DNA of 32,000 bases from an uncultured archaeon (GCA_964354495.1 CAYHAA010000001.1:90001-122000), one strand, 5' to 3'; positions 27,033 through 32,000 are shown, counted from the stretch's first letter. Notes: generated by a model not told the origin, from the letters alone. A program made the numbers and translations.

Positions 27033-27150
27033 AGCTATCGAGACGCATCTGATTCATGAAAAAAGAAAAACGAAACATCTTTGAACATTTCTTATTAGAA
27101 AGCTTGATAAGTAGACCTAAGGCTCGAGGCTGAGTCAGGTGGAAGAATCG

Positions 27151-27603
27151 ATGAGCTTTGATATTATCGCTGAGCCGGCTGTCAAGTCCCCAGCCGATGC
27201 TCGATTCAGACGCGGCCGCGGTTTCAGTATTGAAGAGACGGTGCAATCGGGACTCACTGTAGACGACGCTCGCAAGATGGGTCTCCTTGTCGATATGAGG
27301 CGAGGGACTGCATATCCTGAGAATATCGAAGCATTGAAGCAGTATCAGAAGGATCTTGAAGAATTCATCAAGGCTCTGGCGGAGGAGGAGAGCGCTGCTG
27401 CTGCTGTAAGTGCAAAGAAATCTGTCGATGATCTCTCTAAGCTCAAGTCAGTGACCGCTGAAGAGGCAGGACTCCTGACATCTGCTGGGATAGAAACGAT
27501 ATCCGACCTTGCCTACTGTGATATCACTAAGGTGGCTGCGAAGACAGGCATCACAGAAGAGCGCATCACAGAGATGGTCAAAGTCGCCCTCAAGAGAGTG
27601 TAA
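27151..27603 (+). CDS. rpl13e: Ribosomal protein L13e fused to C-terminal helix-hairpin-helix domain
   Basis: RRGRGFSIEE..QSGL...ARKMGLLVDMRR...ENIEALK is the L13e pattern. The tail LSKLKSVTAEEAGLLTSAGIETISDLA...KTGITEERI is HhH-like. Confidence 0.85.
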   Translation: MSFDIIAEPAVKSPADARFRRGRGFSIEETVQSGLTVDDARKMGLLVDMRRGTAYPENIEALKQYQKDLEEFIKALAEEESAAAAVSAKKSVDDLSKLKSVTAEEAGLLTSAGIETISDLAYCDITKVAAKTGITEERITEMVKVALKRV

Positions 27604-27622
27604 CCTGTCATGACTATATAGG

Positions 27623-28732
27623 GTGAGCGAGATGGATTATGCTCATCTCATTTCAATACTCGAGAATCCTCCTGCTGTACTCCGCCCTATCATTCTCCCT
27701 GATTTCTTCGTCGATCACTTTGTAGTTCTCCCTACGTACGGGGATTTCGTGAAATCTCTTGAAGCCCTTGCCAAACAAGGGGGCGGCAACCTGATCGGTA
27801 GTGAACAGTTTATCCGCAGGGGGGGCAATTGCGTGAATACCGCCTCTGCCCTGCATGTCCTGGGCTTGGACCCAAGGATGATAGTCACTACAGATGAATA
27901 CGGCGCTTCTCTTCTTGATGCTCTAGCATCACCGGGCCTAGATAAGAGCCATGTTCACAGGGACGGGCGTCTATCAACCACGGTTTCACTTGAAACCAAC
28001 TTCAAGGGGCGTAAAATCAATCTGATGATCAGCGATAGCGGATCTGCATCATCGTTTGGATACGATAGTCTTACAGACTCTGATCTTGAACTCATTCGTA
28101 GCTGTGGCCTTGTTGCCTTAGTGAATCTCAACCATAATCACAGAGGTGCAGATTTGGCGCGTGCTCTCTTTAGGCAGGTGAGAGACACTTCATCATCAAT
28201 CACCTTCATGGATATTGGTGACCCCTCGAGTAATCCAGAGCTAGTAATCCCACTGGTAAGGGACGTCATATCTGAGGGTCTAGTGGACATTCTGGGCGCT
28301 AATGAGAATGAAATTGGTTGGCTTGCATGGGCTCTCTCAGGGCAAGATGATCGTTGGCGTGCAATGGTATCTCATCCCACCGAATGGATTGCAGGAGCTA
28401 GGAAGGTTTCACAGGAAACTGGAGTCAAGATTGACCTGCATACGCCACTCTTCTCAGCAGCAGTCAATAGTGACGAGGTGATTTCAGCCCCTTCATTCCG
28501 AGTTGAGAGCAAAGTTGTTTGCGGAGCGGGCGATGCGTGGAATGCAGGAGACATCTATGGGCTCCTCCTAGATTTGACACCATCCGATCGGATTGTTCTT
28601 GCGAATGCAATAGCCGCCCTCTATGTTTCATCACCAACGGCATCACATCCGTCAAGGCAGGAACTCATCACATTTCTCAATGGAAAACCGGCTCTTTCCA
28701 GAGACGGCAAAAAGCTACTTATGCACCGTTAA
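27623..28732 (+). CDS. PfkB/ribokinase-family carbohydrate kinase
   Basis: GGNCVNTA, FMDIGDP, ANENE, and anion-hole motif CGAGDAWNAG. Confidence 0.88.
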   Translation: MSEMDYAHLISILENPPAVLRPIILPDFFVDHFVVLPTYGDFVKSLEALAKQGGGNLIGSEQFIRRGGNCVNTASALHVLGLDPRMIVTTDEYGASLLDALASPGLDKSHVHRDGRLSTTVSLETNFKGRKINLMISDSGSASSFGYDSLTDSDLELIRSCGLVALVNLNHNHRGADLARALFRQVRDTSSSITFMDIGDPSSNPELVIPLVRDVISEGLVDILGANENEIGWLAWALSGQDDRWRAMVSHPTEWIAGARKVSQETGVKIDLHTPLFSAAVNSDEVISAPSFRVESKVVCGAGDAWNAGDIYGLLLDLTPSDRIVLANAIAALYVSSPTASHPSRQELITFLNGKPALSRDGKKLLMHR

Positions 28733-28767: not shown

Positions 28768-29715
28768 GTGAACCAGTTGGAGTTGGAACGCGTACTCACG
28801 AAGCTAAAGTTCGATGAGTCTGTGACAGGCTATGCCTTGATTACAAACGATGGCCAGCCCTTCCTTTCCTTCTCACTTCCAGATGAAGTTGTGCCTCAGA
28901 TCAAAGGCACGCTCAAGATTCACGCCGGTGGTCTGAGACTCGTGAATATCATGACCAGCCACGGGAGCGTCATCTTGTCACGAGTGGACCCTCAGTGGGT
29001 TCTTGCTGTTCTTTTCACGCCAGAGCTCACGCTTGGTACTGCACTCTCCAGGGCAAAATCAGTTGTCGAGCTCTTGGAACAAGTGGTACTTCCGCCGCCT
29101 CCGGTTCCTGTTGAATCAGATGAGGTTCCTATCTCTGAGCCAACCGGGCTTGAGGCTCCCGTGGAGTCAGCATCGGCTCCCGTGGTAGAGGCAGTACCTT
29201 TCGTTGTCGAGGAGACATCGACCCGCCCAGAAGCTATAGAGCTGCATCACGCATGCGTTGTCCTCCGGGGGGAGAGGTATCGAGATGCCATGACTCTTGA
29301 TTCAGCTCTGAACACCACGTTGAAGAAAGTCTACTCCAACCTTGCCGTTGATATTCTTCTCGTTATCGATCAGAAGATGACAATCTATGAGATTGCTGGA
29401 GCTCTAATAAGACCGGTAGAACGAGTACTGGAGATCGTTAGATGGTGTCTGGCAGAGAAGATTGTTGACGTGGACTGTCCAAAACCAGAGGAAACTAGAC
29501 AAAAAGAGATAATTGAGATGCCTTTCTTTGAAGGCAAGCTTGAGAAAGCAAAGAAGGAGCATCGCTCCGTCCTCGCGCTCTGTGACGGAACACGAAGCAT
29601 TCAAGAGATTGCAACGCAGCTGGGTATGCAATACTTTCAAGTCTTACAGAGCATTCTTCCCTATCGTGGGAAGACTCTTAAAATGGTACTTACAGATAAG
29701 AAATCAGGAGTTTGA
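28768..29715 (+). CDS. Roadblock/LC7-like domain + Pro/Glu-rich linker + two winged-helix-like domains
   Basis: The N-terminal ~105 aa has an alpha-beta-beta-alpha-beta-beta-beta-alpha pattern (VTGYALITNDG). Linker starts LPPPP. wHTH-like segments IDQKMTIYEIA and LCDGTRSIQEIA. Confidence 0.65.
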   Translation: MNQLELERVLTKLKFDESVTGYALITNDGQPFLSFSLPDEVVPQIKGTLKIHAGGLRLVNIMTSHGSVILSRVDPQWVLAVLFTPELTLGTALSRAKSVVELLEQVVLPPPPVPVESDEVPISEPTGLEAPVESASAPVVEAVPFVVEETSTRPEAIELHHACVVLRGERYRDAMTLDSALNTTLKKVYSNLAVDILLVIDQKMTIYEIAGALIRPVERVLEIVRWCLAEKIVDVDCPKPEETRQKEIIEMPFFEGKLEKAKKEHRSVLALCDGTRSIQEIATQLGMQYFQVLQSILPYRGKTLKMVLTDKKSGV

Positions 29716-29720
29716 AAAAA

Positions 29721-30227
29721 ATGAGTATTAAGGGAAAAATTGCGTGGAAATTCATGACGACCAAAGTATCGAAGGTTCTTTTCCAGGCCAATTATAGAGA
29801 GCTCATGAACCTAGTCATGAGCTCAAGTAATAATGTGGAAGAGATCAATCGAAAAATGAAGGAAATTGGTTTTCGTGTTGGCGAGACGCTACTAATGGAC
29901 TATGCCGATAGAATCCGACAACATGCAGTTGACTTTCCAACGTTCTCAAAGACACTGCAGCTTGCGTACAAGGTGAACTCAGGACAATTCTTCACCAGAA
30001 TTGAGATTAGCAAAGATAAGAGAACAATCAAATTCACTGACGACCTCTGTCCGGTTTGCGAAGGCGTGGCTATCTCAGACATGCCTGGTCTTCAGTACTG
30101 CGTGCTTGTGAGCGGAGTGTTCGATGCAGTCATGAAACTGCGAGGGTTCTCAGCCGATAGCTATCAGGAGTCCTGCAAGGCCGTTGGCGATGAAACCTGC
30201 ACTTGGACGCTTGTTCTCCGAGACTAG
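29721..30227 (+). CDS. Bet3/TRAPPC3-like V4R-family protein
   Basis: KVSKVLFQANYRELM...NVEEINRKMKEIGFRVGETLLMDY follows the Bet3 N-terminal pattern. C-terminal V4R Cys motif ESCKAVGDETC plus CPVC and YC. Confidence 0.85.
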   Translation: MSIKGKIAWKFMTTKVSKVLFQANYRELMNLVMSSSNNVEEINRKMKEIGFRVGETLLMDYADRIRQHAVDFPTFSKTLQLAYKVNSGQFFTRIEISKDKRTIKFTDDLCPVCEGVAISDMPGLQYCVLVSGVFDAVMKLRGFSADSYQESCKAVGDETCTWTLVLRD

Positions 30228-30307
30228 TTCGTGACCAGCCATCCGGAATAGGTATAAAACACTTAGCGCGAAAATATCGTGTAGGCACCATCTATGGAGG
30301 CTAATGA

Positions 30308-30826
30308 ATGGGTCAAGGTCTAGGCACGATATTCGGGCTCATAGCTGCATTCGCCATTACATTCATCGTTATGACATTCGGAATCTACATGCCTGCGGAT
30401 CTGATATCCCCCGTAGTTGTACAGGACTTCCTCAGTAACAGTGACCTTGAAATCAGATTAGCAGTCGTTGGCACAATCCTCTACCCGTCTGCTCTGGGCG
30501 GGTCCAGTCTCGGGAGTGTAATCCACTATGGCGCTACTGGTGCATCCGTGCTAATGTTTCTCGCATGGGGCATAGCGGGTCTGATTGCGGGCCTCATGTC
30601 AAGGGATTTTCTGCCAGCTATCATGGCTGCCGTGTTTGCAGCTCTCATTGGTGCTCTTTTGACATGGCTACTCATATTCGTGATTTCTCCAGATTTTGAC
30701 ATCGCAGCCATTTTCGCACCTGGTTCGCTGCTCTTGATGGAGGTTGCTCTAGAGGGAGCTATCTATCCGTGTATTGCATGCATTATCGGTGCCATTCTTG
30801 GCGGTGGCATTACAAGGGATCGTTAA
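30308..30826 (+). CDS. Gly/Ala-rich multi-pass membrane protein of unknown function
   Basis: 4-5 hydrophobic helices with GxxxG-like motifs (GIAGLIAG, IIGAILGGG). Preceded by GGAGG. Confidence 0.75.
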   Translation: MGQGLGTIFGLIAAFAITFIVMTFGIYMPADLISPVVVQDFLSNSDLEIRLAVVGTILYPSALGGSSLGSVIHYGATGASVLMFLAWGIAGLIAGLMSRDFLPAIMAAVFAALIGALLTWLLIFVISPDFDIAAIFAPGSLLLMEVALEGAIYPCIACIIGAILGGGITRDR

Positions 30827-31404
30827 CCATCTGATTTCCTGAGAATTGCCCCACACTCAGAACAGATCAGTGGATTTGATTTGAAGACTGCGCCACATTG
30901 ACAAACTGTTTCAATCTTCACTGGAATAGGTGGCTCTGCGGTCCCCCGCATCCTCTCAATGGCCGCTGTAATCGGAAGGGCAGTTATCATAACAAAGAGA
31001 GATGCGACCATAGAAATAGCAGACTGGTAGACTATGGCGTAATTCCTCATTGGATTCAGAGCAATATCCCAGAACAGTGGGTCCCTCAAGAGCTGAGATA
31101 TCAACGCAAAGATGGTCAGAAAGACTCCAACCCATAGAGCTGACCTGAGAGTATTCCATCCTTTCCGTGAGAAAGGTGCGATTATTGTCCCGATGATTAC
31201 CCATGATATCAGATATGCAGCGGCTGTTGGGAAATTGAAGAGACCTTGGATGGTAGATTGAAGTGCCCAACTCCCATCGAGGATGAACCATATCATATTG
31301 AATGGCTCTGGGTATGCTGGCTGTGGCGGTAGAAGTCCAGCCAAGCCAACAAATGAGCATGAACCCACGACTATTCCTAAGAGTCCACCCGCTAGGTTTC
31401 TCAT
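30823..31404 (-). CDS. 4-TM membrane protein with C-terminal zinc ribbon
   Basis: Start reassigned to ATG 31404 (MRNLAGGLLG), after GGAGA. C-terminus CQCGAVFKSNPLICSECG. Confidence 0.75.
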   Translation of the reverse strand: MRNLAGGLLGIVVGSCSFVGLAGLLPPQPAYPEPFNMIWFILDGSWALQSTIQGLFNFPTAAAYLISWVIIGTIIAPFSRKGWNTLRSALWVGVFLTIFALISQLLRDPLFWDIALNPMRNYAIVYQSAISMVASLFVMITALPITAAIERMRGTAEPPIPVKIETVCQCGAVFKSNPLICSECGAILRKSDG

Positions 31405-31579
31405 CGAATCTCCTCTTGACAGTGTCTTCATTCGTGTGGGCGGTTCCCTCTTAACAGTTTTCGATTGATTCTGACTGACAAAACACACAACACAACCACA
31501 ATCCTTTTCAGAATACTCTGAAGAATAGAGGTTGGACGAGCAGTTTTTAGTCAGGCCAGTGTCTGTGAGGTGTAGTGCA

Positions 31580-32000
31580 ATGTCCAAAAATCTGGAGCAA
31601 GCCCTATCCAAATTAAGATTTGACGATCAGGTTCTTGGTTATTCCCTGATGACGAAAATAGGTAGGCCATTTGTGAGCTTTGCATTTCCTGACGAGCTGT
31701 TTCCGCGAGTGAAAGACAGCATCAAGTTGTACAAGGCGGACCTTCGTTTAATGACAATCGATACCGAAAAAGGCCTCGTGGTCCTATCCCCTGTTGACGA
31801 GAACTGGATATTGACAGCACTATACGTTCCTGAACTTCAGCTTGGACTAGCTATCGCCAAGACTAAGAATGTCCTGCGTCTTCTTGAAGGTATTGAACTT
31901 CCGCCGCCCCCAGAAGACTTTGAGGAATCTTCAGAAATGAATATTCAGGTTCTTGAGAGCATTGCTGTCAAGGCTGCTTCTATTGAAACAACTACGCCAC
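31580..32000 (+). CDS. Paralog of the 28768 roadblock-like protein, 3' truncated by window edge; absent from ORF track
   Basis: Hand translation MSKNLEQALSKLRFDDQVLGYSLMTKIGRPFVSFAFPDE...LLEGIELPPPP. About 53/107 ungapped identities to 28768. Preceded by GAGGTG. Confidence 0.85.
   Translation, partial: MSKNLEQALSKLRFDDQVLGYSLMTKIGRPFVSFAFPDELFPRVKDSIKLYKADLRLMTIDTEKGLVVLSPVDENWILTALYVPELQLGLAIAKTKNVLRLLEGIELPPPPEDFEESSEMNIQVLESIAVKAASIETTTP

Follow-up and report, generated by a model that had tools for sequence, protein, structure and literature searches.

Layout of the locus

We analyzed a 32,000-nucleotide stretch of DNA from an uncultured archaeon (GCA_964354495.1 CAYHAA010000001.1:90001-122000, here G000:C1:90001-122000; "the window" below), which lies in a 3.3-Mb genome that is 97.7% complete; homologs of the locus proteins bear the name Candidatus Thorarchaeota. 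Near its 3' end the window encodes a 315-residue protein (A1), modeled as a Roadblock-fold domain followed by an LPPPP motif, an acidic linker and two winged helix-turn-helix (wHTH) domains, and directly behind it a 168-residue protein (B1) with the TRAPPC3/Bet3 fold of the V4R superfamily. After two membrane-protein genes (M1 and M2) a paralog of A1 (A2) begins, which runs past the end of the window and is followed there by B2, B3, a membrane-anchored double-wHTH protein and an ABC transporter. The locus consists of two sister cassettes, A1-B1(-M1/M2) and A2-B2-B3, each headed by an A gene, and it holds every TRAPP or V4R gene of this genome that scores above or just under the Pfam cut-off. 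One more, sub-threshold V4R match lies on a different contig, and phmmer searches with A and B against all open reading frames (ORFs) of the genome returned no paralogs besides the locus's own copies. The features of the window are listed below, the two cassettes before the flanking genes.

28768..29715, plus strand: A1, 315 residues, Roadblock domain, LPPPP, acidic linker, wHTH1 and wHTH2 (ORF and AlphaFold2 model)
28768..29088, plus strand: A1 Roadblock-fold domain, residues 1-107 (DSSP, Foldseek, VIA-align)
29089..29103, plus strand: LPPPP motif, A1 residues 108-112 (alignment of 37 sequences)
29104..29247, plus strand: A1 linker, acidic, proline-rich, variable, predicted to be disordered (model confidence, charge, alignment)
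29248..29487, plus strand: A1 wHTH1, residues 161-240, acidic, extended at its N-terminus by an additional strand and helix (AlphaFold2 C-terminal model)
29503..29712, plus strand: A1 wHTH2, residues 246-315, basic (Pfam HTH_47 and DUF742 below cut-off; AlphaFold2 model)
29721..30227, plus strand: B1, 168 residues, TRAPPC3/Bet3 fold (V4R superfamily), four invariant cysteines (Pfam TRAPP, PDB matches)
31580..32000, plus strand: A2, first 140 of 328 residues; the gene extends to window coordinate 32566
30308..30826, plus strand: M1, 172-residue polytopic membrane protein, Asgard-only (4-5 transmembrane segments by hydropathy; no known family)
30823..31404, minus strand: M2, 193-residue membrane protein, four transmembrane segments and a C-terminal zinc ribbon (ORF; hydropathy)
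31405..31579, no strand: M2-A2 divergent intergenic region, 175 bp, with presumed promoters (from sequence only)
27139..27603, plus strand: L13e-like protein with a C-terminal helix-hairpin-helix tail (Pfam Ribosomal_L13e, E 4.7e-10); opens a conserved 12-gene block
27623..28732, plus strand: PfkB-family sugar kinase-like gene (Pfam PfkB, E 2.2e-14), immediately 5' of A1

A1 starts with GTG, preceded by GAGGT 5-6 nt upstream, and the ATG of B1 at 29721 lies 5 nt past the A1 stop codon, with an AGGAG motif inside the 3' end of A1. A sequence-only reading of this DNA had placed both genes at exactly these coordinates and called them translationally coupled; the adjacency stands, and the 5-nt spacing suggests that coupling may occur. 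It had also described two membrane-protein genes after B1, both of which are present, although M2 lies on the minus strand, convergent with M1 and divergent from A2, and a second copy of the N-terminal domain at 31580, about 50% identical, gapless and likewise ending in LPPPP. BLASTP of A1 against the A2 fragment in the window bears out that count (53/107 identities, 50%, 0 gaps, E 1e-38), and both domains do terminate in LPPPP, but what begins at 31580 is a complete 328-residue paralog, 36% identical to A1 over its whole length, rather than the domain alone.

The Bet3-like proteins

Pfam scores are to be read against cut-offs of 23 bits (Robl_LC7), 27 bits (TRAPP, PF04051), 31 bits (V4R, PF02830), 27.1 bits (HTH_47) and 27 bits (DUF742). 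B1 scores 26.2 bits against TRAPP, and most of its orthologs carry a precomputed PF04051 match. By phmmer it matches the crystallized Thorarchaeota TRAPPC3 protein (Thor-TRAPPC3; PDB 7yh3, E 2e-19; 7yh2, E 1.4e-18) and eukaryotic TRAPPC3 (E 1.7e-4), which upholds the Bet3-like assignment first made from the sequence. Beyond position 32,000, where a second V4R gene had been thought worth looking for, there are two, B2 (TRAPP, 40.5 bits) and B3 (V4R, 39.1 bits). B1 scores only 13.1 bits against V4R, and this low value places B1 and B2 on the TRAPP side of the superfamily, whereas B3, a plain V4R protein, lies at a distance from both (branch length 3.0).

Four cysteines of B1 (C110, C113, C127 and C160) do not vary across 37 sequences comprising B1, B2 and the B genes of other families, and B2 has exactly four cysteines, all at these columns. 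In the Thor-TRAPPC3 crystal a four-cysteine zinc site tethers the sheet to helix D, as in PoxR (PMC10933270), and a zinc site is predicted in B1 from its conserved cysteines. The available structures, 7yh2 (AB25) and 7yh3 (SMTZ1-45), were reported by Tran et al. 2024, who treat Thor-TRAPPC3 as a stand-alone homodimer and do not mention its genomic context; the homodimer resembles TRAPPC3/C6, and its cavities are comparable to those of V4R regulators (PMC10933270). In AB25, the gene that occupies the B2 position encodes exactly the 7yh2 protein, with all 157 residues identical, so that the crystallized Thor-TRAPPC3 is the gene right behind A2; B2 is its ortholog and B1 its paralog. In the tree, a long stem branch (1.15 changes per site) leads to the B2 type, and the B1 type is the slowly evolving copy and is closest to Bet3-like genes found in other Asgard families. 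Transcription factors classically use V4R domains as sensors. In PoxR, DmpR and XylR the V4R domain is fused in one chain to AAA+ and helix-turn-helix (HTH) domains, whereas in this locus it forms a small protein of its own, whose gene follows a Roadblock-wHTH gene.

The Roadblock domain and linker of protein A

The AlphaFold2 model of A1, built on a 37-sequence alignment, has a mean predicted local distance difference test score (pLDDT) of 81.5, and only the linker (residues 116-155, pLDDT <50) is disordered. According to DSSP the N-terminal domain, modeled at a pLDDT of about 90, has an alpha-beta-beta-alpha-beta-beta-beta-alpha topology (helix 2-14, strands 19-26 and 31-35, helix 41-52, strands 58-63, 66-72 and 77-83, helix 89-103). 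Its best Foldseek matches are the Asgard Roadblock proteins 9jue and 7f8m, LAMTOR2 and MglB (E 6e-7 to 1e-4), and VIA-align gives Z 13.1 to 9jue_F (rmsd 2.4, 106 aligned residues), 13.0 to p14/LAMTOR2 and 12.0 to MglB. On this modeled structure the domain is a divergent Roadblock-fold domain, as the sequence-only reading had proposed. The fold is thus that of MglB, the partner of MglA, and of the LAMTOR/Ragulator Roadblock proteins (Z 12-13), from which A differs in scoring under the Robl_LC7 cut-off, in being fused to winged helices and in having no adjacent GTPase gene in the Thorarchaeota family to which the window belongs (the Thor family). A Pfam search of the genome found 12 other Robl_LC7 genes, neither A gene being among them. 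Two such matches (G000:C6:96130-96384 and G000:C1:619035-619232) open long ORFs of 317 and 262 residues and so may be further Roadblock-fusion proteins of this genome.

In 37 sequences that include A1, A2 and other families, L108, P109, P110 and P111 never vary, and at least 90% have P112. The linker that follows varies in length and sequence and has a median net charge of -12 and an isoelectric point (pI) of 4.1. Family A is narrow: among 1.84 billion representatives it accounts for only 26 clusters at 50% identity. The named sequences among 266 A1 homologs are all from Thorarchaeota or Sifarchaeia, and phmmer of A1 against PDB sequences gave only chance-level matches (E 1.5).

The combination of a Roadblock domain with a DUF742-like wHTH in one module also recalls the actinobacterial conservons (CvnA-D), which comprise a kinase, the Roadblock protein CvnB, the DUF742 protein CvnC and the GTPase CvnD. 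Reading A as a fusion of CvnB and CvnC was rejected: DUF742 reaches at most 23.3 bits, weak matches of this kind occur in 9 of 14 control genomes, and no histidine kinase or GTPase gene lies within the block.

The winged helices of protein A

The C-terminus of A1 is modeled as two winged helices (pLDDT 87), in keeping with the wHTH assignment of the sequence-only reading. When this model was aligned to one representative from each of 48,161 PDB clusters, the top matches of wHTH1 were 8adl_S of the yeast SEA complex (Z 10.2, rmsd 2.4, 73 aligned) and 8fw5_B of human GATOR1 (Z 9.6, rmsd 2.2, 71 aligned), with ordinary DNA-binding winged helices at about 7; from their chain lengths, 8adl_S is taken to be Npr2 and 8fw5_B NPRL2. 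The full-length model is co-linear with GATOR1 chain 9o5a_C (Z 11.3, 249 aligned, model residues 15-310), and in Foldseek 8adl_S and 9o5a_H match it (E 6e-5 to 9e-5) along some 370 columns. The C-terminus alone gives weak Foldseek matches to NPRL2/3-type chains (E 5e-3 to 0.2), as well as one to an AFDB entry named 'NPRL3 C-terminal HTH' (E 4.7e-4).

GATOR1, like its yeast counterpart SEACIT, is a GTPase-activating protein (GAP) complex for RagA/Gtr1. Its subunits NPRL2 and NPRL3 (Npr2/Npr3) share with A, co-linearly, an N-terminal domain of the Roadblock/longin superfamily followed by winged-helix modules; they form a heterodimer, and A1 and A2 are likewise two paralogs encoded together. The LPPPP motif and acidic linker are, by contrast, particular to the Asgard family, and the partner gene of A encodes a Bet3-fold protein that has no counterpart in GATOR1. 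On the models, A resembles NPRL2/3 in layout and fold, a likeness that falls short of proving homology. An 'NPRL2-like' family, which is probably family A, has been reported in most Thorarchaeota metagenome-assembled genomes by Liu et al. (bioRxiv 10.1101/2020.10.19.343400).

Among the features described for NPRL2/3 are a catalytic arginine finger and a GP motif before strand 2 (PMC12290439). A1 orthologs carry arginine or lysine at residue 72 (window 28981-28983), at the end of strand 4 (..ARVD..), where A2 orthologs have proline (..SPVD..), and a G-x-P precedes strand 2 in both (A1 G29-Q30-P31, with G29 conserved in at least 90%). The difference at residue 72 recalls heterodimeric longin GAPs with an arginine finger on one subunit only, a likeness at the level of sequence.

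The second winged helix scores 25.3 bits against HTH_47 and 23.3 bits against DUF742, both under the cut-off. It is the part of A most widely kept beside B genes, and A-like proteins from distant families match A in this region. Its charge (median pI 9.4, against an acidic wHTH1) does not separate a DNA-binding from a protein-binding role. A 2076-residue metagenomic protein, P0143, matches A1 residues 255-295 within wHTH2 in 15 separate stretches and thus appears to be a giant array of this type of winged helix.

Conservation of the A-B pair

We examined 33 loci of the Thor family, 16 from the same genus (as 4-kb stretches), that of Thor AB_25, and 16 from other genera. The A1-B1-M1 core is present in 16/16 same-genus loci, with the L13e-like and PfkB-like genes upstream and M2 after it where the stretch reaches, and the order L13e-PfkB-A1-B1-M1-M2(-)-A2-B2-B3-HTHm-ABC, in which HTHm is the double-wHTH membrane protein, is intact in Thor AB_25 and in all 16 other-genus loci, at 33-86% identity. 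The sequence-only reading had made its proposal depend on conserved gene order, and the order is indeed kept within the family. In a sample of 400 Asgard genomes, the A profile was found in 83/85 Thor-family genomes, usually twice and about 2.9 kb apart, and the B profile in 79/85, while both were absent from the families numbered f5, f17, f18 and f20. Over the whole sample the presence and absence of A and B by family largely coincide, which is weak evidence because kin are not independent.

Outside the Thor family the bulk of the block is gone and the pair is kept: five other Asgard families have an A-like gene directly upstream of B, one of them (f21) twice, with gaps of -4 to about 150 nt that in several cases measure only -4 to +8 nt.

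f2 (G019): A, B, B3
f12 (G029): wHTH2-only A-like protein, then B; also a Roadblock-linker-wHTH1 gene divergent from an M2-like zinc-ribbon membrane gene
f13 (G031): Roadblock-linker-wHTH2, then B, then two membrane proteins
f21 (G141): two cassettes
f32 (G329): A-like gene, then B

The trees of the two proteins are congruent, the f2 genes grouping A with A2 (support 99), B with B2 (97) and B3 with B3 (100), and this agreement indicates that the cassettes were inherited as units. One further B gene (G399) lies at a contig end, where its context is unreadable.

GTPase neighbors and complex prediction

In f32, three tandem Ras-family genes (Pfam Ras, E about 1e-41 each) stand immediately 5' of the A-like/B pair, and in f2 a Ras/Arf-like GTPase gene is divergent from the A-B-B3 operon; this neighborhood is suggestive, not decisive. 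The three Ras-family genes span L053:2244-4394 of G329, and the f2 GTPase gene occupies L020:2759-3469 of G019. The f32 region (G329 L053:2244-8029) carries on one strand the three Rab-like GTPases, a 209-residue wHTH2 A-like protein, the Bet3-like gene and a MoxR AAA+/VWA fusion.

A complex prediction of A1 with two copies of B1 gave an ipSAE of 0.33 (runs 0.33, 0.21 and 0.47), and the best of three controls scored 0.00; the runs share at least 66% of their contacts, and the partner pLDDT is at least 71. The mark applied to such predictions is reached by 58/80 solved complexes and 2/110 mismatched pairs; those reaching it with a score of 0.60 or under are only 7 of the 80 solved complexes and both of the passing mismatches. 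The prediction thus lends weak support to physical binding of A1 and B1. For the complex of a Roadblock-wHTH protein with a Bet3-like subunit that the sequence-only reading had put forward, the folds and the linkage hold, and the predicted interface is weak. None of the outcomes it had named as contrary was found outright, the order being kept, the N-terminal domain having the fold proposed and the interface scoring low without being absent.

A proposed Roadblock platform with Bet3-fold partners

Tight operon spacing, paralogy, the modeled folds and a deeply conserved A-then-B order are what the data show, and on this basis A and B likely act as one unit. Beyond this we infer, with a probability of roughly 40%, that A serves as a Roadblock-dimer platform for a small GTPase and, by way of flexible winged-helix arms, holds Bet3-fold proteins that bind a ligand or lipid. 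Because all solved Roadblock proteins dimerize, to our knowledge, the Roadblock domains of A would be expected to do so, as A1/A1 or A1/A2, and the dimer would form a platform for a small Ras-superfamily GTPase; small GTPases usually dock on Roadblock dimers. The tethered winged helices, chiefly the basic wHTH2, would hold a B dimer, the internal cavity of which would bind a hydrophobic ligand or lipid. Through the complex, a signal from a ligand or the membrane would be coupled to the nucleotide state of the GTPase or to where it is located, and the complex may adjoin the co-conserved membrane proteins M1 and M2. A more ambitious version, in which an A1/A2 heterodimer (the counterpart of NPRL2/NPRL3) and Bet3-fold dimers of B1 and of B2/B3 (the counterpart of the TRAPP core) act jointly on Rab- or Rag-like GTPases at a membrane, seems improbable to us; if it were true, GATOR1/SEACIT and TRAPP would descend from parts already partnered in Asgard archaea.

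Several results weigh against the platform model. The Thor block neither contains nor adjoins a GTPase gene, which the sequence-only reading had proposed looking for beyond position 32,000, and of about 8 lineage contexts only 2 have such neighbors. A weak score of the kind obtained for A1-B1 is said to be wrong more often than right unless the pairing is already likely, f7 (G024) has a B-B tandem with no A-like gene upstream, and Thor-TRAPPC3-GFP showed no membrane targeting in HeLa cells (Tran et al., PMC10933270). The N-terminal domain is below the Pfam Robl_LC7 (PF03259) cut-off (no match for A1; 12.2 bits, E 0.15 for A2), and NPR2 (PF06218) has no match in the whole genome at E up to 10; because neither sequence family is matched, the NPRL2/3 likeness is one of structure and layout. 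That likeness is itself imperfect, as the multi-domain matches between A1 and GATOR1 have an rmsd of about 20 Å and the N-terminal domain, which starts with a helix and ends with one helix, has the Roadblock topology and not the longin one of NPRL2/3 (beta-beta-alpha-beta-beta-beta-alpha-alpha), and finds its closest matches among Roadblock proteins rather than longins. Finally, the basic wHTH2 scores like ArsR/MarR DNA binders (Z 6-7).

This last point leads to the main rival reading, in which the pair is a ligand-responsive transcription regulator: B would sense a hydrophobic molecule, and A would dimerize through its Roadblock domain and bind DNA through wHTH2, with the acidic linker perhaps serving as an autoinhibitory DNA mimic and the neighboring membrane-protein and ABC-transporter genes as targets. 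PoxR/DmpR-type regulators sense their effectors through V4R, and the Thor-TRAPPC3 cavities are comparable (PMC10933270). The high pI of wHTH2, sub-threshold Pfam matches to HTH_47, MarR, ArsR and Sigma70_r4, the many ArsR, TFE and Fur wHTHs at Z 6-7.5, and AFDB neighbors that include an 'ArsR family transcriptional regulator' matching the two-part layout all fit such a role, as does the conservation, immediately downstream, of a membrane-anchored double-wHTH protein and an ABC transporter. We nevertheless hold it somewhat less likely than the platform model: the best matches of wHTH1 score 2-3 Z units higher than DNA-binding wHTHs do and belong to Npr2/NPRL2, whose winged helices do not bind DNA, wHTH1 is acidic, the putative recognition helix of wHTH2 (YFQVLQSILPY in A1) contains no arginine or lysine, and GTPase genes adjoin the pair in two lineages. 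Nor do we know of a Roadblock domain fused to a DNA-binding output as an established type of regulator, which also counts against it. Were it correct, the Thorarchaeota 'TRAPPC3-like' eukaryotic signature protein would be a sensor subunit and not a trafficking component.

Taken literally, the three Bet3/V4R paralogs in one locus could also be a proto-TRAPP, with B1, B2 and B3 forming hetero-oligomers like TRAPPC3/C5/C6 and the Roadblock domain of A replacing the longin subunits Bet5/Trs23/Trs20 in a membrane-associated guanine nucleotide exchange factor or tether for a Rab-like GTPase. The core fold common to Roadblock and longin, the similarity of the Thor-TRAPPC3 homodimer to TRAPPC3/C6 (PMC10933270), the Rab-like (Ras family) genes beside the f32 pair and the two membrane proteins within the block agree with this idea. 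It is unlikely all the same: B3 is a plain V4R protein distant from B1 and B2, the longin subunits of the TRAPP core have no winged helices, no membrane targeting was seen by Tran et al. (PMC10933270), and the layout of A fits that of NPRL2/3, components of a GAP, not of TRAPP subunits. The gene order might, at the other extreme, simply have been inherited in a slowly rearranging region, with shared descent and co-regulation of products that act separately; the block does keep plainly unrelated genes (L13e, PfkB), the A1-B1 complex prediction is only weak, and the B genes of f7 have no A. This we consider very unlikely, since the adjacency of an A-like gene and B outlives the loss of the block in five other Asgard families and changes in the architecture of A (one or two wHTHs, different N-terminal domains), the gaps are -4 to +8 nt in several cases, and the duplication histories of A and B are congruent.

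The locus bears on the origin of the eukaryotic GTPase regulators of membrane trafficking and nutrient signaling. The sequence-only reading knew of no characterization of this architecture, and the pairing indeed goes unmentioned by Liu et al. and Tran et al., although the parts themselves are published; neither the A-B pairing nor its phyletic depth is described in the literature searched. The crystallized Thor-TRAPPC3 and its paralog each stand directly behind an NPRL2/3-like Roadblock-winged-helix gene, and the A-then-B order extends across the Thor family and five other Asgard families (at least six), twice beside Ras-like GTPase genes. The locus names concrete proteins and candidate GTPase clients, and in doing so turns the statement that Asgard archaea have the folds into a testable complex, a possible archaeal forerunner of trafficking-GTPase regulators that is open to bench testing.

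Neighboring genes

The start of M2 was set by a Shine-Dalgarno motif and by the length of its orthologs, and its C-terminal zinc ribbon has the pattern CxC..CxxC. Neither M1 nor M2 matches a Pfam family; the Atlas clusters of both contain Asgard sequences only, those of M1 being Thorarchaeota/Promethearchaeota hypothetical proteins, and 13-15% of members in the M2 clusters carry Zn_Ribbon_1. Past the window, the membrane-anchored two-winged-helix protein after B3 matches Pfam HTH_HVO_0163_N (E 2.8e-16), and an ABC ATPase and an FtsX-type permease close the region (L003:5752-9250, window coordinates about 33752-37250); these genes follow B3 in the same order in all Thor loci that are long enough. 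Upstream, the PfkB-like gene is conserved in position in all Thor loci examined, as is M1 within the cassette, and the L13e-like gene holds its position in 31/33, the remaining two stretches stopping short of it. The two upstream genes (27139-28732) are thus always 5' of A1 in the Thor family, and a functional link to it is not evident.

In f7, a Roadblock-linker-wHTH2 gene has directly 5' of it a gelsolin-repeat-like protein (G024 L029:5119-6921; Pfam Gelsolin, E 0.0023, sub-cut-off). A protein encoded near the wHTH2/B pair of f12 (G029 L033:3550-4512), which has no Pfam match, begins with an N-terminal segment that by eye looks similar to the gelsolin-like protein.

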